From assembly GCA_049296775.1 (NCBI GenBank), contig JBAQTB010000001.1, positions 31,491-95,490 of the forward strand: a DNA stretch of 64,000 nucleotides, in the 5' to 3' direction. This document shows positions 2,556 through 57,702 of this stretch, piece by piece. A program made the position numbers and the translations under genes. The notes under the pieces were generated by a model. It worked only from the letters and a program-made list of their open reading frames with translations, was not told where the DNA came from and did no database searches. The stretch is from Patescibacteria group bacterium. GTDB lineage: Bacteria > Patescibacteriota > Patescibacteriia > UBA9934. Position 1 is the stretch's first letter; each line of letters begins with the position of its first letter.

Positions 2556-3518
2556 TTATCTTCGCACATCTTGCCCTATTTCGTCATCTGGGTTCATGTA
2601 AACGCTCTGATCAAAATACGGAATGAGTGGCTCGACACTCAAAGTTCCGCTAGGGGGCACCGCACCAAACCACCTCAAATCCAACACGCGAGTCTCCCCA
2701 GCTCCAAACTCTGGTACAGCTACTTTAGTTAAAGACACCACTGTGGCGCCACGCATCAGTTTGACTAAAAATTCCGGAGACCAGTAAGCGTATGCGGTAC
2801 GATTGGTTAAAGTGACCTGCGAATGGCCGAGCAGCTCATCCCCAACCAATAGGTCCTTAGCGTAAGTCGCCTGATCAACGGTGATATTGGATCGTGACTG
2901 TAAAAATTGCTCCGTGTTTGAGATTATATGTTTATCCACACGGTGCCAGACTTGATTGGTCATGATTAGGCGCAGGCTCCCGGGACGCTGTTCGAAACTA
3001 ACATTTATAGCTGCCAGCAGCCTCTGTTCATTGGGATTCAAGAAACCCGTATAAGTCTCAGTCACCCCACCTTCATAGCCAAAAGCGTAATCAAAAGTGA
3101 CGTACCAATCATCATTTGAATTAGTGACCGGTACGAACACGTCATATTTACCAGGCACCACCGACACTGACCTCACGTCCTGAATATCTAAACCCGTTGG
3201 CGCCAAGCGGGTCACTCCAGCGTGACTAGAGTTAAGATTAGCAAAAATTCCGGCCGTTAATCTGGCATCAGAAAAAGATCCTGACACGATATACATGATC
3301 ACGCCGCCAATAAAAACCAGGAGCAACAAAATATCGACACCGGCCAAAAACCACAGCGCACCCAACTCTAACCTAGGGCGAGCATTCACCATGGCAACGT
3401 CCCGACGGTATCGGCTATCAATCGCCTTATACTCGCCGGAAAGCTTGGTTGGTATTTTTTGTGGCTCCCCCTTCACCATAACTATGTACATTTTATCACA
3501 TTCAGGACTGTACTCCAC
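2556..3518 (-). CDS. Hypothetical membrane-anchored protein with one N-terminal TM segment.
   Basis: 320 aa ORF with a TM helix (LGALWFLAGVDILLLLVFIGGVIMYIV) and no recognisable catalytic motif. Divergent from gyrB. Confidence 0.45.
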   Translation of the reverse strand: MEYSPECDKMYIVMVKGEPQKIPTKLSGEYKAIDSRYRRDVAMVNARPRLELGALWFLAGVDILLLLVFIGGVIMYIVSGSFSDARLTAGIFANLNSSHAGVTRLAPTGLDIQDVRSVSVVPGKYDVFVPVTNSNDDWYVTFDYAFGYEGGVTETYTGFLNPNEQRLLAAINVSFEQRPGSLRLIMTNQVWHRVDKHIISNTEQFLQSRSNITVDQATYAKDLLVGDELLGHSQVTLTNRTAYAYWSPEFLVKLMRGATVVSLTKVAVPEFGAGETRVLDLRWFGAVPPSGTLSVEPLIPYFDQSVYMNPDDEIGQDVRR

Positions 3519-9315: not shown

Positions 9316-9894
9316 ATGAATGATACCTTTGGACCTGGATCAAATCAGGAAAGACGCCTTATCAACGACCATGATCGGCTAAAAGCCACGGTGGACAGCC
9401 TCAAAACCTTAGGCATGAAAATTGTGCTGACTCAAGGAGTTTACGACTTGATCCATGAAGGTCATGCGGCCTACTTAGAAAAAGCTCGGTCTTTTGGCGA
9501 TATTCTCATAGTCGCCGTGGATTCAGATGCGCTGACAAAAATCCGCAAAGGCCCTAAACGCCCGATTGTCCCGGAGGCGGAACGCGTCAACATGCTATTA
9601 CACTTACGACACGTGGATATCGTCACCGTCAAACAAGCTGAGCACGGCCTGGGTGATGTCATTGAGCTCGTCAAACCCGATGTCATGGTGTTCTCCTCCT
9701 CAACTACCGATGTTCTACCGGAAGAAGCCAAGTCTTATCAACAACATTGTGGTCGCATAGAAATCTTGCCGCCACAAGGCACCACGTCTACCACCGCGAG
9801 AGTTAGAAATTTGACCATTGAGGGTGCTGAGACATTGGCCAAAGAAGTCAGTGAACTAATTACCAAATTCCTCGATCAAATCAAAACGAGCTAA
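9316..9894 (+). CDS. Cytidylyltransferase-like (HxGH) nucleotidyltransferase.
   Basis: 192 aa. VLTQGVYDLIHEGHAAYLEKAR matches the (T/H)xGH nucleotidyltransferase signature of the HldE domain II, TagD and NMNAT superfamily. The substrate cannot be assigned. Confidence 0.65.
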   Translation: MNDTFGPGSNQERRLINDHDRLKATVDSLKTLGMKIVLTQGVYDLIHEGHAAYLEKARSFGDILIVAVDSDALTKIRKGPKRPIVPEAERVNMLLHLRHVDIVTVKQAEHGLGDVIELVKPDVMVFSSSTTDVLPEEAKSYQQHCGRIEILPPQGTTSTTARVRNLTIEGAETLAKEVSELITKFLDQIKTS

Positions 9895-9895
9895 T

Positions 9896-10720
9896 ATGCT
9901 CATCGCCTTTATTCCGGTACTCCACACAGGCTATCTTGAGTTATTCAAACAGCATCCTGAAGAGCTCGGTATCTTGGGCCTCGACGTTATTGCCGATTAC
10001 ACCGCACTCACCCGTGATCTACGTGTCATAGATCCACAAGTACTCAAACAAGCTATTGAAGGCCTACGAATTTTCCCGCGGATACGTGTCTTGTCAAAAG
10101 CAGACTTAGCTACTCTTGGAACCAACTCGACTAACATCATCATGCCTGATGACGATGTTTCACGTGAGCTGTCGAAGAGATATTTTGGCGATAAAGCTAC
10201 TTTTACTCAAGCCGCGATCCGTTACCGTTGGGATAAAACAGCTGTCACCAAGGAAAATACCGTAACTCCAGATCGCACCGTCTCCGGTAGCGCAGTTGAC
10301 CGCGAGCTCATGCAACTAGCTCGGGCAGAAGGTGAAAAGAGTCAGGATTGGTGGCGACAAGTGGGGGCTGCCATCCTCAAGGATGGTCAAGTCTTAGCCC
10401 AGGGACATAATCATCATCTACCTAGCGATTTCCACTTAGGAGTCAATGGCGATCCGCGGTCTAACTTCAACGCCGGCGAACGCATAGACCTCTCAACAGC
10501 CATTCATGCCGAGGCCAGTCTGATTGCCAACGCCGCCAAACTCGGCACACCGCTGAACGGAGCCACCATCTACGTGTCTACTTTTCCCTGCCCTAACTGC
10601 GCTCGCTTAATTGCAGAGGCCGGCATCAGCAAAGTCTATTACCAAAAAGGCTATTCCCTCCTGGACGCCGAAGAGATTTTCAAAAGCTACCAGATTGAAA
10701 TTATCTTAGTGCAAGACTAA
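9896..10720 (+). CDS. dCMP/cytidine deaminase-domain protein with an N-terminal degenerate nucleotidyltransferase-like domain.
   Basis: 274 aa. The C-terminus has the zinc-deaminase motifs AIHAEASLIANAA and STFPCPNCARLIAEAGI (HAE...PCxxC), as in dCMP deaminase/ComEB. The N-terminus has FIPVLHTGYLELF, an H-T-G-Y in place of HxGH. Its start ATG abuts the stop of the upstream gene. Confidence 0.7.
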   Translation: MLIAFIPVLHTGYLELFKQHPEELGILGLDVIADYTALTRDLRVIDPQVLKQAIEGLRIFPRIRVLSKADLATLGTNSTNIIMPDDDVSRELSKRYFGDKATFTQAAIRYRWDKTAVTKENTVTPDRTVSGSAVDRELMQLARAEGEKSQDWWRQVGAAILKDGQVLAQGHNHHLPSDFHLGVNGDPRSNFNAGERIDLSTAIHAEASLIANAAKLGTPLNGATIYVSTFPCPNCARLIAEAGISKVYYQKGYSLLDAEEIFKSYQIEIILVQD

Positions 10721-11166
10721 CCGATACGACTACACAACCCGCGCTCAGCGTCATAATCTGGTGCGTCTGGATCGGATTGAATGATATGCGCGTGCAGATG
10801 AGAAACTGAACCTCCGGTAAAATGTGTATCTCCAAATCTAAGCATGAGAGTACCGCCAGGAATCTGGCGCCGCTCTGTCTCTTCTGCCAGAATGGTCTGT
10901 AGCTCGCCCCAAGCCTGAGCTGACAGCTCAGTCACGTGCTCAATGTGAGTGCTGTGAATTAACAAAATATGGTGCTTGGACGGCTGGTAAGGGTACATGT
11001 TATCCGTGACCGACCAGTGTCCATATGTCCGGATGGGTCGCTTGTGAAAATTCAAAAGCTGCTCAGGGCAAAAAGGACAAACCGCCTGACCCGCAATCTC
11101 CTTAATGACCTGAGCATAAACGCCACGATTGGCGTTATTTTGGTTAACGAGTCCAGCCATACCCAA
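10717..11166 (-). CDS. HIT-family (HINT-like) nucleotide hydrolase.
   Basis: 149 aa with the histidine triad HLHAHII near the C-terminus and an N-terminal CPFC motif as in HINT proteins. Its stop overlaps thyA by 4 nt, and its C-terminus overlaps the convergent deaminase gene. Confidence 0.8.
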   Translation of the reverse strand: MGMAGLVNQNNANRGVYAQVIKEIAGQAVCPFCPEQLLNFHKRPIRTYGHWSVTDNMYPYQPSKHHILLIHSTHIEHVTELSAQAWGELQTILAEETERRQIPGGTLMLRFGDTHFTGGSVSHLHAHIIQSDPDAPDYDAERGLCSRIG

Positions 11167-11168
11167 GA

Positions 11169-12062
11169 CTACACCGGCGTAGGAATTGACATAGCCTCAT
11201 GCGCTACGTAATCGCTAAGCGTGAAATGCTCCGGTCTAAAATCGAAGATATCCATGATGTCTGGCTTGAGAGACATGGTTGGAAAAGGTTTAGGTTCACG
11301 TGCTAGCAGCTCCTCCACCTTGGCATATTGAGATTCGTAAATATGTGCATCAGACAGCGTGTAAACCAACTCTTTAGGCGTATAGCCCATGATTTGAGCC
11401 ACCATCATGGTAAAGGCGGCATACTGAATCATGTTAAAAACTACGCCAACCGGCACATCGCCGCTACGCTGGAAGTGGTGCACGGACAGCTCTTTGGTTT
11501 CTGGATTGGCGATGATGTGCAAATAACCATGACAAGGCGCCACAACCACCTTGCGTGGCGGTAAACCAGAATGCTGAATGGTGTACTGAGGAATCCAAGG
11601 AGAAATGATATGAGTCCGCAAATTAGGTCGCTCTTTGAGCTGCTTAATCACGTGCTCAATTTGGTTAAACGGCGTACCTTCAGCGGTAGGGAAAGCCGCC
11701 CAAGCTGGACCATATGAACCGGGCCCTAGATCGCCTTCTGGCAAGCCAAAAATGTCACAACGCTCTTTAGTTACCCACTTCTTCCACCACCCGCAACCAT
11801 ACGCCTGCATCTGCTCCAGAGTTTGCGCGCCGTGCAAAAAGGCAAAGTGCTCACCTAACGCACCTAACATAAATCTCCCAGACAGATCACGTTCTGTAAT
11901 CATGGGGAAACCGTTCTTAAACGCAAAACGCATCTGATGCCCCAAAACCATCTTGGACTTCTCCCCCTGAATGGGATGCATCTCAGTCCCCTCAGTCATG
12001 ATACGTGTCAATAAATCATGGTACTGACGATCTGGAGTGCGCTCGGCGTAAGGTTTCATCAT
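11169..12062 (-). CDS. thyA: Thymidylate synthase (ThyA family), a divergent form.
   Basis: 297 aa. It has LGHQMRF, DLGPGSYGPAW, the catalytic APCH cysteine, FQRSGD, VFNMIQY (Asn conserved, so dUMP specificity) and DAHIYESQ. Relative to E. coli ThyA it carries a short insertion (SPWIPQYTIQHSGLPPRKVVV) before the catalytic Cys. Confidence 0.8.
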   Translation of the reverse strand: MMKPYAERTPDRQYHDLLTRIMTEGTEMHPIQGEKSKMVLGHQMRFAFKNGFPMITERDLSGRFMLGALGEHFAFLHGAQTLEQMQAYGCGWWKKWVTKERCDIFGLPEGDLGPGSYGPAWAAFPTAEGTPFNQIEHVIKQLKERPNLRTHIISPWIPQYTIQHSGLPPRKVVVAPCHGYLHIIANPETKELSVHHFQRSGDVPVGVVFNMIQYAAFTMMVAQIMGYTPKELVYTLSDAHIYESQYAKVEELLAREPKPFPTMSLKPDIMDIFDFRPEHFTLSDYVAHEAMSIPTPV

Positions 12063-12559
12063 ACTAAGTAATGAAGAAGGAGCGTGTGTGAATTAAGTTG
12101 TTTCACCGACTGAAAGCGTAGTGCTACCCTAGCAAACCCTTGCGCTAACGGCACTCCCCCGCCAAACAAAATCGGCTCAAGTGTCAAGAAAACTTCTGTC
12201 ACCAAGCCCGCCGCCAAAAATTGACCGTAAATAGACGCTCCCCCAGCCACCGCCAAGTCTGTCACGCCTTCAGACTCTAACTTAGCAACCAACTCATGCG
12301 GTTCTAAGTTACTAAATTCGACCCCTGGCATCGGCTTTTCTTTACTAGGATCTTTAGTTAAAACAAGTAAACGCCGGCCCTTTAAAGCGCGGTTAAAGGT
12401 CGAAAAAGTCTTCCTGCCCATCACTACCACGCCAATCTCTTTGGTTTTATCAATAAAAAATTGCTTGTCTTCCTTACTGGTCCAATCCATGGAGGATTGA
12501 TCAACATGTTCAGCGATTTTTCCGTCCGCTGAAATAGCCGCAATCAAAGTAACTTTCAT
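12059..12559 (-). CDS. folA: Dihydrofolate reductase.
   Basis: The six-frame ORF runs to 12685, but the DHFR fold begins at MKVTLIAAISADGKIA (ATG at 12559). It has VVVMGRKTF and LLVLT, and its stop overlaps the thyA start (ATGA), the classic thyA-folA pairing. Confidence 0.75.
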   Translation of the reverse strand: MKVTLIAAISADGKIAEHVDQSSMDWTSKEDKQFFIDKTKEIGVVVMGRKTFSTFNRALKGRRLLVLTKDPSKEKPMPGVEFSNLEPHELVAKLESEGVTDLAVAGGASIYGQFLAAGLVTEVFLTLEPILFGGGVPLAQGFARVALRFQSVKQLNSHTLLLHYLV

Positions 12560-12762
12560 AATGACTGGGCTAAGAAATGCAAAGCTACTAAGAAAAAGTG
12601 AGGCGTGACGGGCAAGCATGGAGCCCATCACACCCCACCATTCCTCGAATCCGCCCACACGATTGCGATACCTCGACTGTGCCATTGCCCACGCTCATGG
12701 TCAACGTCAGAGTGTGGATAGCCAAGATGAATTTTATCAGATTAAAGATTACAGTGGCGAAT

Positions 12763-13188
12763 ATGCAAATTTCATTTCGTCGGCTATCTCCCGACACTCT
12801 AGTACCCGAGTATAAAACTCCTGGTGCCTGCGCCTTTGACGTTGCTGTGATCGAAGAAGTGACCCTAGAGCCCGGTGAGCGTCAACTCCTCTCAACCGGT
12901 TTGGTAGTCACTGTACCCAAAGGCTATGCGTTACTCCTCATGTCGCGCTCCAGTAATGCTAAAAAAGGCTTGCGCCTCTCAAATAGTGTTGGCTTGATTG
13001 ATCAAGATTACTGTGGCCCAACCGATGAACTGAAATGCTCAATCCATAATTTTGGACAAACAGCCTACACGATCACTAAAGGCGAACGGCTCGCCCAAGC
13101 CCTCATTGTGCCCATTGTAATGGGTGATTTTATAGAAACACATGAGGTCAAGGCGGGAGACAGGGGCGGTTTTGGCACAACTGGCTAG
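12763..13188 (+). CDS. dut: dUTP diphosphatase.
   Basis: dUTPase motifs AGACAFDVAV, LLSTGLVV, RSSNAKKGL, GLIDQDYCG and the C-terminal RGGFGTTG. The ORF opens at 12598, but MQISFRRLSPDT at 12763 matches the family N-terminus. Confidence 0.8.
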   Translation: MQISFRRLSPDTLVPEYKTPGACAFDVAVIEEVTLEPGERQLLSTGLVVTVPKGYALLLMSRSSNAKKGLRLSNSVGLIDQDYCGPTDELKCSIHNFGQTAYTITKGERLAQALIVPIVMGDFIETHEVKAGDRGGFGTTG

Positions 13189-17500: not shown

Positions 17501-18265
17501 CTAATCATTTTTCACCAGTCGCAGCACGCCCGGTTGGCGCGGCTGCGTAACTGGCAGTGGCGGAATATTCCGCTCCGGAATGTCGTCGTCTTCTTCGAGC
17601 TTCCCCAGACATGAGTCTGGAAAATACTCGATTCTTTTACCGCTCGCTGACAGCGAGCGCTTGAACTTAGGCCGTTGCTCGAGTTCCAAACGTACGTACT
17701 CTTGGGCGGCAATGTAAGCCGTCCAGATCAGGTTGAAAAACTCGACCATCACCCCCAATTGATACGTGGAGTGCATGGCCCGCTTTTCAAATTTATCGCG
17801 GAAGTCACCGCGCGCCAGCCTGTAAGAGACCTCGTATTCCGGCCTCGCAAGATGCTCCTGCTGCCAGGCGTGTAACTTTTCCGGCTCAAGAAGCCGGATC
17901 AGCCTCTCCGCGCGATACGCGATTACTTCTGGCAGATCCATGATCGGCCCAGAGCAAAAGGGCAGAAAGCGCTCCTTGATCCAGAGACACATCTCACCCC
18001 AGAATTCCGGAGAGAAATCGGCGTCATCGTCAACCGCGCGCACGTAATTCTGGATCACTCCAGCCAAACGCGGTAGATGAGCACGCCGCGTGCCTCCCCC
18101 TTTTGGGAGCTGTACCAGGATACCTGGCGACACGAAGCATCTGTGAACGCAGTCAAGGATGTCATCCCGCCTGCACTGAGGTGCAGTGTACGGCATGTCG
18201 GAATGAACCAAAAACAGATTGAATCGTTGAGTCAAAGAACACCTCCAGTTAGCTGAAGCTAGCAA
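17501..18265 (-). CDS. Hypothetical protein.
   Basis: 254 aa, soluble, rich in Cys and Trp, with no recognisable motifs. Divergent from the three-gene block to its right. Confidence 0.45.
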   Translation of the reverse strand: MLASANWRCSLTQRFNLFLVHSDMPYTAPQCRRDDILDCVHRCFVSPGILVQLPKGGGTRRAHLPRLAGVIQNYVRAVDDDADFSPEFWGEMCLWIKERFLPFCSGPIMDLPEVIAYRAERLIRLLEPEKLHAWQQEHLARPEYEVSYRLARGDFRDKFEKRAMHSTYQLGVMVEFFNLIWTAYIAAQEYVRLELEQRPKFKRSLSASGKRIEYFPDSCLGKLEEDDDIPERNIPPLPVTQPRQPGVLRLVKND

Positions 18266-28454: not shown

Positions 28455-28609
28455 AGACGATTAATCTAGATCAAGATTAACAAAAATACGCCCTAAAAGC
28501 GAGAGCGACAGTCCCCATGATTTGCACAGGAAATTTAGGTGAGATTGACCAAATAACACACATGCTGCTAAAAATACTGTAGGTAGTCAGGACCGCTCAC
28601 CCCCTAATC

Positions 28610-29467
28610 TTGGAGCTGGCCATGAGCAAGCCGCCCCCGTTTAATCTCTACGCTCCAACCTCCTGCAACCTCGATCCGTCCCTGGCTCGTCATTTGCAGG
28701 TAGCACGCGCCTCCCAAGTTGCCAGCCAAGCCTTTGACTGGCAAGCCTTGATCATCAAACTACAGTGTAGCGTGCGACCAGTGCTAAAAACAGCCAGCTG
28801 GCTGTTGCTAGCAAGCATCATCCTCACCGCTGAAGTCACGCTGTCAACGGCGCTCACAGCCGGTTCAATCTACGGACTAGTCGCCTTCATGTGCCTGCTG
28901 GCTGGTTGGGATGAGCATCCGAAGACACTAGTCTTCAAGCAGGCCAGTCAAAGCATGTTGGCGACCATCGTACAACCCCTCGCGTCTGGAATACAGCTCT
29001 TCAACATTGCCACCTACAAGTTCAAAGCGCCGCCCGTGATGGTGACGACACTCTCCGGTACCTCGAGATTGAAGACTGACTCCATTTGGACCGATGAAGT
29101 CTGCCAGGACCCACGGTTTGGTGAATACCTACTACTCCTTGAGTTCATGCAGGCCTGGAGTGATTTGGCGAGTACGCTTAATCGCCTCATCATGAGCGCG
29201 GAGGATCAAGTACTACCCGGCGTGGTCGCTAAGTTTATCCTTGACCATCGGGCGACACTCGAACTGAAAGAGTTGCAGTTGAGAAGTTTCATCAAACACT
29301 GCACTGCGCTCGCTACGCTCGGTGAACCTGGCGCCGTGGCACCAGAGACTCATCAGCCGCTCTTTGGTCAGGCCGAGGCCGTGCACAAACACCTGGCCAG
29401 CCTCAGGCGCATCAACTCTGAAGCTCAGAGTTTACTCGCCGACATGGTGCGAAATGGCAAATACTGA
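28610..29467 (+). CDS. Hypothetical protein in a GC-rich island.
   Basis: 285 aa with a central hydrophobic stretch and no recognisable motifs. Local GC is about 58 % against a background near 49 %. Confidence 0.45.
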   Translation: MELAMSKPPPFNLYAPTSCNLDPSLARHLQVARASQVASQAFDWQALIIKLQCSVRPVLKTASWLLLASIILTAEVTLSTALTAGSIYGLVAFMCLLAGWDEHPKTLVFKQASQSMLATIVQPLASGIQLFNIATYKFKAPPVMVTTLSGTSRLKTDSIWTDEVCQDPRFGEYLLLLEFMQAWSDLASTLNRLIMSAEDQVLPGVVAKFILDHRATLELKELQLRSFIKHCTALATLGEPGAVAPETHQPLFGQAEAVHKHLASLRRINSEAQSLLADMVRNGKY

Positions 29468-29493
29468 TCAGGCGCCCACCGGCGTCCTACCCT

Positions 29494-29530
29494 GCAACGC
29501 ATACACTTGTGCTTGCAGGGTTTTTCTTAC
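29494..29530 (+). terminator. Intrinsic terminator after 28610..29467.
   Basis: ccctgcaa-(15 nt loop)-ttgcaggg followed by tttttctt. Confidence 0.5.
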
Positions 29531-29650
29531 TCAAATTACAATTTGCACTTTCAGTCCCCAAGTTGCATTGACTGATAACACAACAAGCGCCTAAGCTGAA
29601 TTACTGCTACTTGCTATCCTCCGATAGTAACTGGGCAGGCCGAGGTCACC

Positions 29651-30046
29651 ATGCTCAACCTGCTACTGGTCTTTAGTGCCATGGCACAAGAGACGGACAT
29701 CGCCGCCGTACCCGCACCGGATGAGTTGCGCTGTCAGCTCATCATCACGAGGGACTTCCTGGCGCTTCAGCGCCAGCTAGAGCTGCAAGTCATCGAGCAA
29801 TTGATGCTCGCCGACCCGCTCAATCGCCGGCAACGCAAAGCCGTCAAAGCGGGATTGGAAACGGCCATAGCTAGCGTGGCCCACACTGATCAGCAAAGCA
29901 CTACCGTCATCGGGCGCCTGGCAGCCCTAGAAACGGAGTTCTACCTAGCTAACCCGAGCCTGGAACTGAGGCCACTCTCGCTCCATGTCTGCATCAACGC
30001 AATTCCGTCGGACGAGCCCCAGGGTCTCGTTCTTGATAGAAGCTGA
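29651..30046 (+). CDS. Hypothetical protein in the GC-rich island.
   Basis: 131 aa, roughly 60 % GC with GC-rich codons. No motifs recognised. Confidence 0.4.
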   Translation: MLNLLLVFSAMAQETDIAAVPAPDELRCQLIITRDFLALQRQLELQVIEQLMLADPLNRRQRKAVKAGLETAIASVAHTDQQSTTVIGRLAALETEFYLANPSLELRPLSLHVCINAIPSDEPQGLVLDRS

Positions 30047-30163
30047 AAGTGCAGCACATAGCTCAGCCCCGCCACCAACACCTCGTGTTGCGTCTCGCGG
30101 GGCTATTTTAATCAGAAAACTCCCGCCGTCGCCGTATGCGACTACGCGGGAGCCAAGAGCTCA

Positions 30164-31189
30164 TTACAGCCAGGTCGAAATCTTGCCGGCGCGCTTAAGA
30201 GCATTATTCAGATCAAGTCTAGCCGTATGCACGGCCTGACCAATCGTCCCCGTCTTTGGATACAGTAACCCACGGGAGGAGTTAACTGTGATCCCGAACC
30301 CATGAATGTCGGCCGCTAAAACCGCGCTGTCAGAGCCACTACCTTGCACTCCGTAACCAGGCACCAAGAACCAGGTCTGCGGCATCAACTGACGCGCGAT
30401 GACCGACTCTTCGGAAGTGGCGCCGACCACTGCCCCCAGGTTAGACCAGCCACAAGCCCCTAGGGCGGACTGACCCAACTTCTCAATCTCGATTGCGACG
30501 TGTTGCCAATGCGGGCGCGTGCCATGGTCCAAAATCCATTCAAACGCACTCGGTAACGGTTTGCCGCCCCTGTGCAGATCAGTCCTGTTCAGATCCTTCA
30601 GCACCGCCTCTCGATCGAGGACAGGCAACTGCTCAAACGCAGAAACCGGCTTGAAGCTAGTCCGGCACACCGCGAAAGCCGCCTTGTTGTTGGCCTGCAA
30701 TTGCGCCATAAACGGCTCAAGACAAGATTGTCCAATGGACGGGTTGATCGTCAAGGCGTCGTACACAGACTGAGCTCCGAGGTACGCCTGAGCGTAGGCC
30801 TGGGCGCTATCGCCGCCGTCACTACACTTAGCATCCAAGATCACAATCAGCCCTTGCTTCCTGGCGTAATGCGCAACATCTTCAAGTGCCGCAAAACCCC
30901 ACGGGCCGTGCTTGCCCCAAAAGGCCCACTGGAGCTTGCACCAAACCACCTCATCACCCGCCTCATCGATGGCGCGTTTACAGAAGTCACGACAGATCTT
31001 AGCCAGACCCTCGCGATCCTCAAACGGGTAGTCATCGTCAGGTACGATCTTGACCCCGTAATATTTGAAGAACTCAGGCGCTGCCTGCGCAATCATCGCC
31101 GTCTGAGGATCCAGACCCAAGCATAAAATACTTTGGCGCGCTGCAACCCCCATGCACGATCGGTCAGTAAACTTAGCATCGCTCTCCAT
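30164..31189 (-). CDS. pyrF: Orotidine-5'-phosphate decarboxylase, type 2 family (orphan).
   Basis: 341 aa. The type-2 ODCase motifs ILCLGLDP, CKLQWAFW (KxQxAFF), DAKCSD (the DxKxxD catalytic triad, with Arg replaced by Cys), AVVGATS and FLVPGYGVQGSG. GC is about 57 %. It has its own hairpin terminator at 30112..30150 on the minus strand. Confidence 0.65.
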   Translation of the reverse strand: MESDAKFTDRSCMGVAARQSILCLGLDPQTAMIAQAAPEFFKYYGVKIVPDDDYPFEDREGLAKICRDFCKRAIDEAGDEVVWCKLQWAFWGKHGPWGFAALEDVAHYARKQGLIVILDAKCSDGGDSAQAYAQAYLGAQSVYDALTINPSIGQSCLEPFMAQLQANNKAAFAVCRTSFKPVSAFEQLPVLDREAVLKDLNRTDLHRGGKPLPSAFEWILDHGTRPHWQHVAIEIEKLGQSALGACGWSNLGAVVGATSEESVIARQLMPQTWFLVPGYGVQGSGSDSAVLAADIHGFGITVNSSRGLLYPKTGTIGQAVHTARLDLNNALKRAGKISTWL

Positions 31190-31276
31190 CTGCCCTCCTG
31201 AAGTTGAACCTAACGCCGCAAAACTATAGTCAAAAATAAAATAAGCTGCAACTAGTGCGGCTTATTTTGCTAGGGT

Positions 31277-31549
31277 TTAATTATTACGATCTCTGGAGCG
31301 CATGGCCTCCATGATTTTGCGCACACCGTCAGCGATGCTACTAACCATGGTGATATTGCCATCAAATTTACGCTTCATGCTCATAATCGCATCCTCTAGG
31401 GCGACGACTTTGAGTTTGATCTCATCGACCAGCCCATACACGTGCTTCAATAAGCTCGCGGCTTGATACATGAGCAGACACAAAAATGACGTAAACCACA
31501 CAGCGCAAAGCGCCAGGACGATAAAGAGAACATCTTGAGTAGCTACCAT
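31277..31549 (-). CDS. Hypothetical small membrane protein.
   Basis: 90 aa with an N-terminal TM helix (VLFIVLALCAVWFTSFLCLLMY) and a helical C-terminus. Confidence 0.4.
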   Translation of the reverse strand: MVATQDVLFIVLALCAVWFTSFLCLLMYQAASLLKHVYGLVDEIKLKVVALEDAIMSMKRKFDGNITMVSSIADGVRKIMEAMRSRDRNN

Positions 31550-52119: not shown

Positions 52120-52638
52120 TTGGAGTTTATGTATAGTGGTATGGACAGAGATATCCGTTGTAAGAGCTGCAGTAAACTACTTGCAAAACAATTGGGAGAT
52201 CTTTCTCGTTTAGAAATAAAATGCGTGCGCTGTGGTAGTCTGAACTTTATCCTCGGAGAAAGTCTAGAAAAATTTCCAGGGCAGATTATCGTGGCGGAAT
52301 CGAATGGCAAAATCGTCTACGTCAACAGCTCCATCCTGCGAGCTTGCGGCTATTCAGAAGCGGAAGTTATTGGAAAAACGCCGGCGCTGTGGGGAGGCTT
52401 GATGCCCAAAGAATTTTATACGGAAATGTATCGAATTTTAATCGAAGAAAAAAAGCCGGTCATTGGTGAGGTCATTAATAGACATAAGGATGGTCACCTA
52501 TACCTCGCCAGCCTCAGAATATGCCCCATACTGGATAGTGAGCGTAAAATGAGTTTCTTTCTTGCCACAGAAAATGTTAAAAACCCTAACGTAACCTTAC
52601 CCCACCCAGCCATGGAAAAAATGCCTGTCTCAGATTAG
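52120..52638 (+). CDS. Com-family zinc finger fused to a PAS sensor domain.
   Basis: The N-terminus IRCKSCSKLLAKQ...IEIKCVRCGSLNFIL parallels the phage Mu Com zinc ribbon (IRCKNCNKLLFKA...IEIRCPRCKRHII). Residues about 55-150 carry a PAS-like core (IIVAESNGKIVYVNSSILRACGYSEAEVIGK). Confidence 0.6.
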   Translation: MEFMYSGMDRDIRCKSCSKLLAKQLGDLSRLEIKCVRCGSLNFILGESLEKFPGQIIVAESNGKIVYVNSSILRACGYSEAEVIGKTPALWGGLMPKEFYTEMYRILIEEKKPVIGEVINRHKDGHLYLASLRICPILDSERKMSFFLATENVKNPNVTLPHPAMEKMPVSD

Positions 52639-52716
52639 TTCACGACCAACTCACAATCTTAAAGAGACTCCAGAAGTCCATACACCAGAGGCTCTAGAAG
52701 CCCATATGCAAATCAT

Positions 52717-55700
52717 ATGGGCTTTTCTTGTAACTACTTGCATCGGCTTAAGTTTAAGAAGATCAGCGCGATTGTTTCCATCCTACTACTGAACAGCTTC
52801 TTATTTCCGAGCACTTCCATAGCAGCTGATACCGTCGATGACATGCTGGTTTATAGGGGTGGTGGTGATACCAGCATTCCAGAATATAAGTTACGTGATA
52901 CTGGCGGATTTGAAAGTGAAGGCACGGCTGCAGATGTTACCAGTGCCGTTCAGTACGTAAAAGTCCTGAGTAAGCCCTCATCTGCTGCTACGGAAAAGAT
53001 TCTCTGTACCCAAGACAGTGCCGGCGATTCAAATTGCCAAATCTGGGATGGATCCAATTGGGGGAATTTACTTGAAATCACGGCGGCTAGTGGCAGCAAC
53101 GGCGGCACAGATGTAGTGTATGAAACCGTGAGCGGACGCGCCCTAGTCTGCTACCGGACTACGAGTCCAGACAACCAAACGCCAGCTTGCCGCATCTGGG
53201 CAGATGGCGCCTGGATAGCACCGGCCAGTGCGCTATCAGTTGGCGCCACCATCCAAAACTTAAAACTATACGCCGATCCCAATAGTAATTACGTGGCCAT
53301 GGTGACTAAAGATGGTAGCTCAGACGTCAATGTCCAAATTTGGAATGGTACCAGCTGGGGCAATTTACAAGAAGTCTCCACAGGCTCTACAACCTGCAAC
53401 CGCTGCACCTCTTTTAGTGGTGCTTGGGAAGCATCTTCCAGTGATTTTGTGATTAGTTGGTATGACAATGCTACGGACACCATGCATAGCCGTGAATTTG
53501 ATAAATCGACGCTCTGGGCCAGCCAGGTGACAGATATTATTACCGGCTTGAGTGCCGCAGACAACGTGTGGGTAGAAATGGCGGCTAACCCAACTACTGA
53601 TCAAATCTTGGCCGTAGTATCTGATGACGACGACACCCTAACCGCCAATTACTGGAACGGTTCCAGCTGGGGCACACAAACTGAACTTGCGGCCAACATT
53701 GGTGGCGTGGTGGGTACGAATAATCGATTATTTGACGTGGTGTATGAAGCTGGCGGCGCAGAAGCTGTGGTCACGTACGGCTCAACCTTGTTGACCTTAA
53801 GTTACCGCGTCTGGAATAGTGCCGGTACCAGCTGGGCAGATGCTGAGCTCCTACCTCTCGCGATTGAATTGAAGGATTGGCATATCTTAGTCGCCGACCC
53901 CAATTCTGATGCGATCATGTTAACCACGGTAGGCACGGTCAACGATGTCGATACTCTAGAATGGGATGGTGACGCTTGGGATGCAGGCTGGACATCTCAC
54001 GAACTCGCTGGGAGTGACCAATATGAAACCGCATCCTTCGCCTATGATTACGAAGATGAGACTAGCAATACACCACCGACGATCTCATTCAATAGTGCCG
54101 CACAAAAAACTGATGGATCCGGCTTGGTAGATATTTCCATTGAGGTCGATGATGCCGATCTAGATGACACTCAAGTAAAAATCGAATACGAGACTGACGG
54201 AGATGGCGCGTGCAACGGCCCGTGGGCAGCGGCCACGTTGGCAGGCCCAGCCACGGCTGATTTTACAGATGGCGGTGGCGTTCCAAACGTGGATAACGGC
54301 CAAACGTATCAAGTGGGTCCCGGCGTCAATACGCGAATCATCACGACTAGCGGCTCGAATACCGTGACTTTTGATTGGCAATCCACCACCGATGTGCCAA
54401 CTGGCAACGGTACGCACTGCTTACGCGCCACATCTAATGATGACGCGGCTGACGCCACCACACCCGACACCATCACTCTTACTTTAGATAACGTTGATCC
54501 AACCGGCTTAGCTAATTGGACGAGCTTTGGTGCAGCTGCGACTACGCAACATTTGAATTGGACCTCAGCCGCTGACACAAATTTTGATCATTATGAAGTC
54601 TGGTACGGCACCAGTCAAAGCGATGTACAGAATCGTACCGGTGCAGCCGTAGAATTTGATGATGACGATTACCTCGCCCTAAATACCGCCTCCACTCATC
54701 ACACTCACATTATCGACCTGACCCCAGATACATCTTACTATTACAAAATTTGGGCAGTGGATACATTTGGAAATGAGCAAACAGTCGCAGATTTAAACTC
54801 TGCCACTGATCCTACCGGTAACTCAGTGCCAAATTCCACAACTCCAACTTCAATCTCGCAGGCTACAGACGGTTCAGGTTTGGTGACATTTACCACCACG
54901 ATTTACGATGTCGATCTAGAAGGGGTAGAAATGCGCATGCGTTTTTCTCCAGATGGCGGCACAACTTTTTATAACGGACAGATTGATTCTGCTACCCCTA
55001 ATTATGGCGATCTCTCCATTGACGTAAATGATTTCCAGATTGGACACACGAATTTGATTGATATCACAGAAGAAGGACCTCATCCTGTTAGTCTAGAAAT
55101 CGTCTGGGATTCAAAGTCTGCCAGCAACCAAAACGGCGGACTAGATAACACAGCCACCGACGTGATCATCCGAGTCACGCCCCGTGACGCCGGCGGAGAA
55201 ATCGGTTTAGATGATGACAGTTTAGCATTTGCTCTGGATAACGCCGGACCCGCCCTGGCAGAAGTCACACCCGTGCCCACCGGTACCACTGACACCACTC
55301 CAAGTTATACGTTTTCCGCTGATGAAGGTGGCGATATTACCTACGGCGGCTCCTGCGCTAGCGCTACCACCACCGCCACGACAGGCAACAATACGATTAC
55401 TTTCAACGCCTTAGCCCAAGGAACATATAGCAACTGTGCAATCACAGTAACTGACGATTTTGCTAATGACACTACGCTAAATGTCACCGCTTTTACAGTC
55501 GACACGACTGCGCCAACCGGTTTAACTGCCCTATCCGCCGGCGCATCTGCGCCAACGACTCAAGCACTGATTTGGTCAGCCGTAACTGAAACTAATTTCA
55601 ACCATTATGAAATTTGGTTTGGGACCAACCAAACCCATGTCCAAAACAGAACCGGTACGGCCACAGAGTGGGATAACAGTGATGACGCTACTCTAGCCAC

Positions 55701-57702
55701 ACGAACCACCACAGGCACGACGATAACAGGCCTAAGTCCAGGTACCACTTACTATTACAAAATTTGGGCGGTAGATATTGCCGGACAAGAAGAAACCGTG
55801 GCCGACATGTCACAATCGACCGTGGCCAATGCCGAACCAACTGGAGTTTTTGTGAGTGCAGAACAGGTTTTTGATGGCGGACAAACGATTGAAGTCTCCA
55901 TCATCGTCGATGATGCTGATGATGAAGATCTGCGAGCAAAAATCGAATATGAAACAGATCTAGACGGCGCCTGTGATGGCCCCTGGGACCCCGCCACCCT
56001 AGCTGGAACAGTTACAGCCACCACAGATGACAGTGGCGGCCCACCAGACATTAGCAACGGCAATGCTTATCAACTTGGCTCCACGGCCACAACGCGGATT
56101 ATTACCTCTGCTGGGAGCAATACAGTTAATTTTGAGTGGGACGTGGTAGCTGACGATGTCAGCGCCAATGGTGAAACTGCTTGTCTACGATTGACAGCTA
56201 ACGACGATACTGATGATCAAACCACCCCAGACACCATCACCTTCACCGTCGATATCACAGAACCAACCATCACGGCTGGCAATATCGTCATGGACATCAC
56301 CACTGACACTGGCACGGCCGACATTGCCGGAGTAGCTGACGTGGTCCTCATCACCTGGGACAACTCGGCCGCAGGCGATAATAATAGCGATGCAGAGACA
56401 GTCGTGGCTGATCTGTCTGAATTAGGCAATGGTGATAGCGCGACTATGTTTGATGATGGGACCAATGGCGATGCTACCGCCGGGGATGATGTTTACTCGT
56501 TGGAATACACCATTGTAGAAGGTGCTATCGACGTCTCAGATGCGGACGTACATATTACAGTCACGGATGATGACAACAATGAAAATACCATTAGCAGCGC
56601 CGGAACCTTGGTAGTTGACTCAGAAAGTCCAACTGCCCCAGGCTCGTTAAGCCTAACCTCCAACGGGGTGGTGGCGATTACTTTTGGTACCCCATCACCA
56701 AGCAGCGATTTTGCCGCGTATAAAATTCATTACCGTACGAGTGGCCAAGTCGTCACTCTCGACGACAACGAAATCTCTAGCTCATCTCTAGACGAGGTCG
56801 ACTATGATGGTAATGACGGCCTTGATGTCACCGGCATCGCCAATGGCAACTACAGATTCAACATTTGGGTCTTTGATGACGCCGGCAATTTCGCCAAAGC
56901 CAGTGAAAGTGCAGTCACCGTTGCAACCGCAATCAATTTAGGTGCTGGCAACAGTGGAGGCAGCCTGAGACCTGGTCGAAGGCAGGTTCAAAAACTCGAT
57001 GCAGCACCAGAACAGTCCCCCATGTTACTACCCGACACAGCCCTACCCTGCTCAACCTGTGTCTCAGATGATCCTGCGCTGTTAGAACGTAAAATTCTCG
57101 TCATTGAAAGAGAGAAAGCCCTCGTTGAGGAAGTAGACGAATCACTCATCGAGCGCTTAGTTGGTAGAATCTTGCTGCAAGTTGAAGAGCGTGGTGAGGC
57201 TTGGTACGTAGAGCCGACCACCAAACGACGATATTACTTAAGAGACGGCTCTGACGCGTATAACGTACTGGGTAGCTCCGGACTAGGTATTACAAATGAA
57301 AATTTAGATAAAATCCCAGTTGGGATAGAGACTCGGTTCCAGATCCAAGATAGTGATGAAGATGGCCTAGATGATCGTCTAGAAGCAGGCCTACACACAG
57401 ACAATCAGAGCACTGACAGCGACAGTGACGGTGTCTCTGACATCGACGAGATCCTACTAGGCACGGATCCACTCGGCGCTGGCATAAAAAATCATGATTA
57501 CGACTTAATAGATCAACTCAAGGGTCGCATAGTGTTACAGGTCGAGCAGCGTGGTGAGGCGTGGTATATCAATCCCAATGACGGTAAACGCTATTACATG
57601 GCCGACGGTGACCTAGCCTACCAAATCATGCGCTTCCTGGCCCTCGGCATCACCAACCAAGACCTCCGCAAAATCCCCGTCCAAGACCTGGAGGGGTTGT
57701 AG
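52717..57702 (+). CDS. Giant secreted surface protein with FN3 domains, internal ~380 aa module duplication, EF-hand/dockerin-like Ca-binding loops and two C-terminal ~65 aa 'GEAWY' repeats.
   Basis: 1661 aa with a signal peptide (KKISAIVSILLLNSFLFPSTSIAAD). FN3 signatures appear twice (NFDHYEVWYG...YYYKIWAVD, NFNHYEIWFG...YYYKIWAVD). A duplicated module begins KIEYETDGDGACNGPW / KIEYETDLDGACDGPW. Ca-binding loops are DSDEDGLDDRLE and DSDSDGVSDIDE. The C-terminal repeats read GRILLQVEERGEAWYVEP..RRYYLRDGSDAY and GRIVLQVEQRGEAWYINP..KRYYMADGDLAY. Confidence 0.8.
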   Translation: MGFSCNYLHRLKFKKISAIVSILLLNSFLFPSTSIAADTVDDMLVYRGGGDTSIPEYKLRDTGGFESEGTAADVTSAVQYVKVLSKPSSAATEKILCTQDSAGDSNCQIWDGSNWGNLLEITAASGSNGGTDVVYETVSGRALVCYRTTSPDNQTPACRIWADGAWIAPASALSVGATIQNLKLYADPNSNYVAMVTKDGSSDVNVQIWNGTSWGNLQEVSTGSTTCNRCTSFSGAWEASSSDFVISWYDNATDTMHSREFDKSTLWASQVTDIITGLSAADNVWVEMAANPTTDQILAVVSDDDDTLTANYWNGSSWGTQTELAANIGGVVGTNNRLFDVVYEAGGAEAVVTYGSTLLTLSYRVWNSAGTSWADAELLPLAIELKDWHILVADPNSDAIMLTTVGTVNDVDTLEWDGDAWDAGWTSHELAGSDQYETASFAYDYEDETSNTPPTISFNSAAQKTDGSGLVDISIEVDDADLDDTQVKIEYETDGDGACNGPWAAATLAGPATADFTDGGGVPNVDNGQTYQVGPGVNTRIITTSGSNTVTFDWQSTTDVPTGNGTHCLRATSNDDAADATTPDTITLTLDNVDPTGLANWTSFGAAATTQHLNWTSAADTNFDHYEVWYGTSQSDVQNRTGAAVEFDDDDYLALNTASTHHTHIIDLTPDTSYYYKIWAVDTFGNEQTVADLNSATDPTGNSVPNSTTPTSISQATDGSGLVTFTTTIYDVDLEGVEMRMRFSPDGGTTFYNGQIDSATPNYGDLSIDVNDFQIGHTNLIDITEEGPHPVSLEIVWDSKSASNQNGGLDNTATDVIIRVTPRDAGGEIGLDDDSLAFALDNAGPALAEVTPVPTGTTDTTPSYTFSADEGGDITYGGSCASATTTATTGNNTITFNALAQGTYSNCAITVTDDFANDTTLNVTAFTVDTTAPTGLTALSAGASAPTTQALIWSAVTETNFNHYEIWFGTNQTHVQNRTGTATEWDNSDDATLATRTTTGTTITGLSPGTTYYYKIWAVDIAGQEETVADMSQSTVANAEPTGVFVSAEQVFDGGQTIEVSIIVDDADDEDLRAKIEYETDLDGACDGPWDPATLAGTVTATTDDSGGPPDISNGNAYQLGSTATTRIITSAGSNTVNFEWDVVADDVSANGETACLRLTANDDTDDQTTPDTITFTVDITEPTITAGNIVMDITTDTGTADIAGVADVVLITWDNSAAGDNNSDAETVVADLSELGNGDSATMFDDGTNGDATAGDDVYSLEYTIVEGAIDVSDADVHITVTDDDNNENTISSAGTLVVDSESPTAPGSLSLTSNGVVAITFGTPSPSSDFAAYKIHYRTSGQVVTLDDNEISSSSLDEVDYDGNDGLDVTGIANGNYRFNIWVFDDAGNFAKASESAVTVATAINLGAGNSGGSLRPGRRQVQKLDAAPEQSPMLLPDTALPCSTCVSDDPALLERKILVIEREKALVEEVDESLIERLVGRILLQVEERGEAWYVEPTTKRRYYLRDGSDAYNVLGSSGLGITNENLDKIPVGIETRFQIQDSDEDGLDDRLEAGLHTDNQSTDSDSDGVSDIDEILLGTDPLGAGIKNHDYDLIDQLKGRIVLQVEQRGEAWYINPNDGKRYYMADGDLAYQIMRFLALGITNQDLRKIPVQDLEGL

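Follow-up and report, generated by a model that had tools for sequence, protein, structure and literature searches.

Type-2 orotidine-5'-phosphate (OMP) decarboxylases (ODCases) such as those of Anaerococcus prevotii (3R89), Leishmania donovani (3QW3), Streptomyces avermitilis (3V75) and Plasmodium falciparum share a TIM-barrel fold and carry a GLDP Asp, a KxQ Lys and DxKxxD, PGxGxQG and NSSR motifs. Their gene, pyrF, stands in an operon with pyrE or is fused with it into a UMP synthase (NF004034 bifunctional ODCase/orotate phosphoribosyltransferase (OPRTase); Leishmania 3QW4), a two-step unit leading from orotate to uridine monophosphate (UMP). Here we describe a pyrF gene for a type-2 ODCase (30164..31189, minus strand, 341 aa) in a 64-kb stretch of DNA, hereafter the window, from a metagenome-assembled genome (MAG) of the Patescibacteria (Candidate Phyla Radiation, CPR). 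The window has 49.1 % GC overall and the gene lies in a GC-rich segment together with two plus-strand orphan genes, a segment which the initial annotation of this DNA had taken to be horizontally acquired. Our analysis suggests that the segment is, on balance, probably an old syntenic Patescibacteria locus with a working pyrF at its core, and that its high GC is long-lived and probably due to biased conversion or allele exchange.

The window protein matches TIGR02127 (pyrF_sub2) at 170.7 bits against a cutoff of 110.6, 60 bits above the equivalog threshold and over profile positions 8-252 of 261, and PF00215 at 2.2e-16, in agreement with the stand-alone, convergent type-2 ODCase first proposed. 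An AlphaFold2 (AF2) model built on a 20-sequence alignment had a predicted local distance difference test score (pLDDT) of 88.9 and a predicted template-modelling score of 0.87, and in a Foldseek search of the PDB the top 39 matches were all type-2 ODCases (E down to 8e-19), with target-normalised template-modelling scores of 0.83-0.89 for the top-ranked bacterial, Toxoplasma and Leishmania chains and 0.53-0.86 for the rest. The protein shares 24-26 % of its residues with the nearest ODCases of known structure, 17-20 % with those of Plasmodium and about 35 % with canonical type-2 sequences from bacteria. The fold and motifs named above are all common to the window protein, and D27, K85, D119, K121 and D124 do not vary when it is aligned with canonical and subfamily proteins; we take these to be the first-strand Asp (D27) and the catalytic Lys-Asp-Lys-Asp. 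The phosphate-binding residues P277, G278, G280 and Q282 (PGYGxQG) and S304, S305 and R306 (NSSR) are also kept, and the 341-aa start is backed by an N-terminal F7 and D9 that are conserved in relatives. The gene is most likely an ordinary pyrF, encoding a predicted OMP decarboxylase that would convert OMP to UMP and CO2.

The initial annotation had noted the DxKxxD triad with Cys in place of a conserved Arg (DAKCSD) and saw in this a possible functional shift. The motif is indeed present, in an active-site loop that reads DAKCSDGGDS against the canonical type-2 DAKRGDIGST, but the suggested shift is not supported, since the flagged position is R in 91 % of subfamily sequences and otherwise K, C, S or A, and the catalytic and phosphate-binding residues are intact. 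Ser is found at this position in canonical CPR pyrF as well, and a change from Arg to Cys at so variable a site would not by itself be a sign of new function. The real peculiarity of the sequence belongs to the whole subfamily, DGGD[T/S] standing in place of DIG[S]T: where canonical enzymes have a D-I-G/A-S/N-T loop following the catalytic Asp, the window protein has D-G-G-D-S. Further differences from described type-2 enzymes are a conserved C-terminal LNxALKRAGK-aromatic tail and a 33-aa insert following strand 6 (residues about 190-223), which the window protein shares with some of its relatives and which is modelled as two short helices with pLDDT 61-79.

The loop (DxKxxDGGD[T/S]) and the LNxALKRAGK tail together define the subfamily. 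DGGD[T/S/E] and the tail were carried by 20 of the 120 best homologues, all 20 of the closest homologue clusters had DxKxxDGG[D/E][T/S] with the tail, and a metagenome scan added 73 more subfamily loci. When one genome per species was scanned, 79 of the 80 loci retrieved were canonical, reading DI(G/A/S)xT apart from one with DVPDT, and the single DGGD-type locus (L013) came from a Candidatus Nomurabacteria MAG. The two named hosts of the subfamily are Patescibacteria and Candidatus Nomurabacteria. DGGD-type pyrF is an undescribed subfamily, and its Gly for a near-universal Ile in the active-site loop is a natural variant of a very well-studied enzyme.

Support for an ordinary PyrF function in this subfamily comes from pyrE: of 53 loci that extend far enough, 39 (74 %) have it as the next gene downstream in the same orientation, in an orotate-to-UMP module, and in 4 more it is upstream. 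The partner proteins are 190-270 aa long; TIGR01367 (orotate phosphoribosyltransferase) is matched by 33 of 37, only 18 of 37 reach Pfam Pribosyltran, and hidden Markov models (HMMs) built from the partners match pyrE of ordinary Firmicute pyr operons at 1e-45 to 1e-52. Two partners, L093_269 and L006_229, have no Pfam match yet fall into the PyrE cluster in BLAST and HMM searches. The pairs are found beside FtsZ, tRNA synthetases, GyrB, MetK and similar genes, with no pyrB/C/D or carAB among their 25 commonest neighbour families and no mobility genes among the neighbour families of subfamily loci. Unlike fused UMP synthases, the subfamily pairs consist of two distinct genes, often with a divergent partner; other steps of the pathway are not seen close by, and the window has no adjacent partner. 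Within 8 kb roughly one subfamily locus in four is solo, some of these having pyrE a gene or two away, and the solo loci of the window clade, L010, L005 and L094 are grouped at the subfamily base in a rough neighbour-joining (NJ) tree. The pyrF-pyrE linkage is the best evidence available in support of DGGD-type enzymes being real PyrF that act with PyrE on orotate. The unit would turn orotate and phosphoribosyl pyrophosphate (PRPP) into UMP amid housekeeping genes, with none of the earlier pyr genes close by, and in the window lineage the lone pyrF between the pheST/90-aa operon and dnaE would receive its OMP from a PyrE encoded at another place in the genome.

Patescibacteria are thought to be host-dependent for nucleotides. 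A compact pyrF-pyrE without the earlier steps would mean that many of them make UMP from scavenged orotate, a testable metabolic dependency. Complete UMP synthesis was described only in Microgenomatia among freshwater CPR classes (PMC9166423), and among the papers searched there was no account of pyrF/pyrE modules in CPR.

Several observations were made on the partners and neighbours of the subfamily. The divergent PyrE partners (L093:5381-6190, L006:1121-1810, L171:9048-9782 and similar) have a PRPP loop such as LLQIEELVTTFDSG and a C-terminal CxxC...PK motif, and may form a distinct OPRTase subgroup. A 182-186-aa protein (KIGVFGSAGG...) that looks LOG-like by eye is encoded between or beside pyrE and pyrF in L140, L150, L151 and L159-L161 (upstream of the ODCase), and L091:12608-13402 has LOG-type Pfam matches (LDcluster4 and Lysine_decarbox). 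Peptidase_S51, TspO and metallo-beta-lactamase genes are likewise recurrent neighbours.

With regard to composition, the sliding GC profile of the window has a plateau of 0.54-0.59 from ~28,550 to ~31,200, and the richest 2.6-kb interval in all 64 kb begins at 28,601. GC and GC at third codon positions (GC3) are 0.551 and 0.643 for orphan gene 1 (measured over 28610-29467, plus strand), 0.583 and 0.689 for orphan gene 2 (29651-30046, plus strand; the GC3 maximum of the window) and 0.562 and 0.640 for the ODCase, against 0.487 +/- 0.021 (max 0.546) and 0.507 +/- 0.045 (max 0.627) for the other 51 genes. The three rank 1-3 of 54 for both measures (z = 3.0-4.5), and the segment has sharp borders that coincide with gene ends. 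A compositionally distinct patch at ~28.6-31.2 kb with GC-rich codon choice (GC3 0.64-0.69) had thus been described correctly, as had flanks of about 49 % GC (dnaE 0.479, pheT 0.492), while the 57-60 % given for the patch was slightly high and should read 55-58 %. The refutation proposed with the initial annotation has an ambiguous outcome: no core gene of the window reaches a similar GC, and the pyr pathway was looked for within the 64 kb. The next outlier is a 254-aa ORF without a Pfam family (17501-18265, minus strand; GC 0.546, GC3 0.627), and the GC heterogeneity of the window is carried by orphan genes and not by core genes.

The slot in which the ODCase stands is conserved. The order rseP, pheS, pheT, 90-aa gene, ODCase, dnaE recurs in at least five related genomes (L002-L004, P0004; L008, P0002; L009, P0003; L094/L098, P0009), the flanking proteins of which are 69 % (PheT) to 90 % (DnaE) identical to those of the window, with pheT 4-fold sites near saturation (p 0.67-0.71). 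Because pyrF occupies the same slot in relatives whose flanks have saturated synonymous sites it does not appear to be a recent import. Between the window and the L002 clade the nonsynonymous divergence (dN) is 0.27 for the ODCase and 0.25 for pheT, the ODCase roughly tracking pheT. No integrase or border repeat was found at the locus, where a search for direct repeats at the island borders gave only short chance repeats, the nearest tRNA is at 36.2 kb, the called genes of the window contain no mobility domains, and IMG/VR holds no viral relative of the subfamily. The initial suggestion of horizontal acquisition is therefore borne out only as far as the orphans are absent from the closest relatives, and fails for a recent import of pyrF. 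Like classical genomic islands the segment shows compositional deviation, sharp borders and orphan cargo that close relatives do not have. Unlike them it has no integrase, tRNA target or direct repeats, its main gene is syntenic with saturated synonymous divergence (dS), and its GC deviation recurs throughout the gene family in many genomes.

This family-wide GC excess was seen in hosts of differing composition. The ODCases of L002 (GC 0.663, GC3 0.84), L094 (0.650, 0.85) and L005 (GC 0.660) lie in flanks of about 0.52, 0.50 and 0.52 GC respectively, those of L008 and L009 have GC 0.648 and 0.624, and those of L013 (0.508), L091 (0.534) and L093 (0.573) lie in flanks of about 0.39, 0.42 and 0.40. 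The mean GC3 excess over ORFs of the same locus was +0.184 in 9 loci and +0.101 in 46 further loci, compared with +0.005 +/- 0.058 in a control of 68 canonical pyrF loci taken from the one-genome-per-species scan (Mann-Whitney p = 4e-6). On average the subfamily exceeds its hosts by 8-11 GC points and 10-18 GC3 points, and in about half of the loci no gene is richer than the ODCase. Across loci the GC3 offset ranges from -0.07 to +0.38 and is almost always positive, ODCase GC3 tracks host GC (r = 0.62), and the excesses of pyrF and pyrE correlate (r = 0.86). The richest ODCase copies reach GC3 0.82-0.88, and no sampled host background is above about 0.65. An excess that persists across a family, and in single loci amounts to as many as 38 GC3 points, is a caution for composition-based island finding. 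At L005 a 290-aa HAD-type hydrolase (2634-3506, minus strand; DWDGT motif) with GC 0.65 is as rich as the ODCase, making this a different GC-rich two-gene pair in another Patescibacteria-like genome, and the 318-aa plus-strand gene called beside that ODCase is an antisense shadow of the hydrolase.

The locus also bears signs of exchange. The ODCase of L094 is only 45-50 % identical to the others, while its PheT is 79.5 % identical to that of L002 (window PheT, 69 %). In the comparison of gene trees, made from pairwise identities and the rough NJ tree, the window and the L002 clade are congruent and the L094 ODCase conflicts with pheT. The window, L008, P0005 and L010 carry the 33-aa insert, and L002 and L009 do not have it (P0002/P0005/P0006 against P0003/P0004). 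Because L002 and L008 are sister genomes (PheT 93.6 % identical) and yet differ in the insert, its pattern implies either that it was lost repeatedly or that recombination took place within the gene. The small ORFs that flank the ODCase differ from genome to genome, and ODCase dS is lower than pheT dS. Because of the L094 allele, the insert, the variable ORFs and the lower dS we favour a recombination-prone locus over a one-off import, and a single old transfer is disfavoured since the time implied by flank saturation should have allowed amelioration. GC-biased conversion or repeated exchange of alleles at such a locus would then drive the excess. The high GC has long been a property of the gene family and of the DNA directly around it and does not mark a recent transfer. 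GC-biased gene conversion has reportedly been found in recombining bacterial genes (Lassalle et al. 2015, PLoS Genetics). The present case resembles it in a local GC3 excess that includes neighbour genes and in the signs of allele exchange and indels, and we put it forward here as a proposed cause only. If so, the GC excess may offer a handle on recombination and biased conversion in organisms not yet grown alone. The practical message of the window itself is modest. In the wider pattern the DGGD loop, the pyrF-pyrE mini-module and the lasting GC excess are the part worth following.

It is possible, though less likely, that a pyrF-pyrE cassette has instead spread laterally and repeatedly from an unsampled GC-rich donor lineage and then ameliorated, with no process acting in place. 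The module is found in many differing housekeeping contexts, but neither mobility genes nor viral copies were seen. Transfers of varied age would fit the range of the offset, and the L094 allele is incongruent with its flanks, whereas the near-constant positive sign of the offset and its tracking of host GC do not sit well with such a history. The offset shared by pyrF and pyrE would follow from spread as one cassette, yet a donor background with GC3 to match has not been found among the sampled hosts, and the offset persists in syntenic copies with saturated synonymous sites in their flanks.

Several points weigh against an old locus with a working pyrF and an excess maintained by conversion. 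The subfamily loci are not phylogenetically independent and the NJ tree is rough, and GC-biased conversion or allele exchange, although the most likely cause, is arrived at through indirect signs. Of 84 columns with conservation of 85 % or more, the window ODCase departs from consensus at 14 (subfamily median 3), and three of the changes (E92G, R122C and T128S) are specific to it. The ratio of nonsynonymous to synonymous rates (omega) among L002, L008 and L009 is 0.15-0.24 for the ODCase and 0.03-0.04 for pheT, a difference of about fivefold that still leaves the ODCase under purifying selection, and given this a relaxed or altered ODCase function is possible. Searches of the 64 kb and of some 20 kb from the relatives gave neither a PyrE-type gene nor a remnant of one, so with no PyrE at the locus a supply of OMP to the window enzyme is presumed, and to our knowledge the change from Ile to Gly in the DIG loop has no characterised precedent among the ODCases studied.

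Taken together such points raise the alternative that the lone ODCase has lost its PyrE partner and either drifts under relaxed constraint or has taken another substrate, e.g. another 5'-phosphorylated ribonucleotide, an alternative which we consider doubtful. Departures from consensus are not confined to the window protein, numbering 11-12 in its clade and 7-14 of 84 columns in the pyrE-less basal group as a whole, but all catalytic and phosphate-binding residues are retained, the profile score is well above the equivalog cutoff, omega is well below 1 for all that it exceeds that of pheT, and the ORF is intact in every relative with, in the window, its own ribosome-binding site and terminator. 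The absence of an adjacent pyrE from the clades at the base of the tree would agree with such a loss, but solo loci make up about a quarter of the subfamily and some have pyrE nearby, which makes a pyrE elsewhere in the genome plausible.

More unlikely still, in our judgement, is a combination in which DGGD-type pyrF(-pyrE) is a distinct orotate-salvage module of Patescibacteria, its GC is kept well above that of every host by an ongoing process (recombination-linked biased conversion or recurrent allele replacement at hot spots, for example), and the pyrE-less basal clade has shifted in role or substrate. A recent import of the whole 2.7-kb block (pyrF and both orphans) from a GC-richer donor is very unlikely, as the raised GC and GC3 shared by the three genes, the sharp borders, the missing orphans of L002, L008 and L094 and a comparable GC-rich trio at L010 are outweighed by the slot held in at least five relatives at saturated synonymous divergence, a dN in step with that of pheT, the lack of an integrase, tRNA, border repeat or viral relative, and host backgrounds that are nowhere as GC-rich as the richest copies.

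The orphans are lineage-restricted genes between the pyrF terminator and the dnaE leader, one encoding a predicted small membrane protein and the other possibly a secreted protein. Orphan gene 1 (28622..29467, plus strand) has 281 aa from ATG 28622, the NCBI call, which is likelier than the TTG at 28610 (285 aa), and orphan gene 2 (29651..30046, plus strand) has 131 aa and a GAGG ribosome-binding site 6 nt before its ATG. As the initial annotation had it, neither contains a recognisable motif: both plus-strand ORFs are true orphans with no family in Pfam or NCBIfam, and each matched only itself among 5.8 billion (5.8e9) proteins. An exhaustive HMMER pass of orphan 1 against 1.84e9 proteins returned the self match and one repeat-driven match; the latter (P0123, 4807 aa, with acidic tandem repeats and 9 weak stretches) was rejected as an artefact. 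Orphan 1 is predicted to have a two-helix membrane hairpin (residues about 54-96) and a C-terminal helical domain, and a single-sequence AF2 model had a pLDDT of 46 and was not usable. The hydrophobic N-terminus of orphan 2 (MLNLLLVFSAMA) could be a putative signal peptide by a reading by eye, below the hydropathy threshold.

Both orphans are absent from L002, L008 and L094. The 80-nt dnaE leader (window 28,460-28,540) comes straight after the ODCase terminator in L002 and L008, which lack the 1.56 kb that the orphans fill in the window. At L010, where PheT is 58 % identical to that of the window, a GC-rich ODCase is followed by two GC-rich ORFs. The product of L010_224, beside this ODCase, is a weak relative of orphan 1 (39 % over 49 aa) with the two-transmembrane (TM) layout in common. 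It was the sole pair shared in all-against-all BLAST and phmmer comparisons of the neighbours of the first loci, which gave no other conserved non-PyrE partner of the ODCase. Because of this relative with the same TM layout, orphan 1 may have resided at the locus for a long time and evolved fast, instead of having arrived recently. At L094:5367-5840 and L098:5437-5907 a 157-aa zinc-ribbon and membrane ORF lies between the 89-aa gene and the ODCase in that relative only, a second sign of gain or loss of small ORFs in the pheT-dnaE interval. A decayed pyrE beneath the orphans was sought at 28455-30200 with HMMs from 41 partner PyrE and with tblastn, in all frames including stops, and no match was found. 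The orphans are not antisense shadows of a minus-strand gene either, as the minus frames hold 24-44 stops and the longest open stretch is 72 codons.

All three GC-rich genes have a GGAG-type ribosome-binding site 4-8 nt before the ATG, and each ends in its own hairpin followed by a U-run, as originally proposed. The intrinsic terminator of orphan 1 (29489..29529, plus strand) consists of the hairpin CCCUGCAAC...GUUGCAGGG followed by UUUUUCUU (66-nt fold of -30 kcal/mol, z -5.7), and that of orphan 2 (30065..30110, plus strand) of a GCCCCGC...GCGGGGC stem followed by UAUUUU (-25.7 kcal/mol, z -5.2). The ODCase terminator (30118..30154, minus strand; GCUCCCGCG...CGGCGGGAGU, then UUUCUG) is convergent with the latter and aligns with the terminator 3' of the ODCase in L002 and L008. 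On the pheT side the border is formed by the terminator of the pheST/90-aa operon (31238..31268, minus strand; inverted repeat I5, hairpin and UUUUAUUUUU, z -3.2). Beyond it and flanking the island is the gene of a 90-aa membrane-anchored protein with an N-terminal TM segment (31277..31549, minus strand), which is not GC-rich (0.465) and is 69-78 % identical in L002, L008, L009 and L094.

The border on the dnaE side is marked by a conserved leader upstream of dnaE (28455..28545, minus strand), which folds into two hairpins with a U-run after the second. In alignments it matches the spacer between ODCase and dnaE in L002 (10940-11070), L008 and L094 (CTGTGCAAATCATGGGGAC ... TTTTTGTTA), and the homology stops near 28,545. 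Four genomes with saturated synonymous sites in their coding flanks retain the 80-nt element (CTGTGCAAATCATGGGGAC ... CTCGC..GGGCG TATTTTTGTTA). It has no Rfam match and may be a dnaE leader or attenuator, the second hairpin being terminator-like. Rfam gave nothing on the GC-rich region beyond a sub-threshold DnaX match, and four tRNAs in the whole window.

Housekeeping genes around the locus include gyrB, nusG, L11, L1, gatB, miaA, thrS and dnaE, and the window further contains pheST, rseP, glmM, ddl, clpB, recG and a Znu transporter. The absence of pyrBCDE noted at the outset extends to the whole 64 kb, in which family scans found no pyrB/C/D/E or carAB and a six-frame search no PyrE-type ORF. 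A deoxynucleotide cluster at 9316-13188 comprises a cytidylyltransferase-like gene, a dCMP deaminase (274 aa), a 149-aa unknown, thyA, folA and a dUTPase/dCTP deaminase, with dCMP deaminase, thyA, folA and dUTPase spanning 9.9-13.2 kb. Because of this pyrimidine deoxynucleotide cluster the organism can process UMP-derived nucleotides, although the window is without de novo pyr genes. A pair of genes at 52120-57702, unconnected with the GC-rich pyrF locus, encodes first a 172-aa protein that combines a Com-type zinc ribbon with a PAS domain and then a 1661-aa protein that has fibronectin-III and purple-acid-phosphatase N-terminal domains and is typical of large CPR surface proteins.

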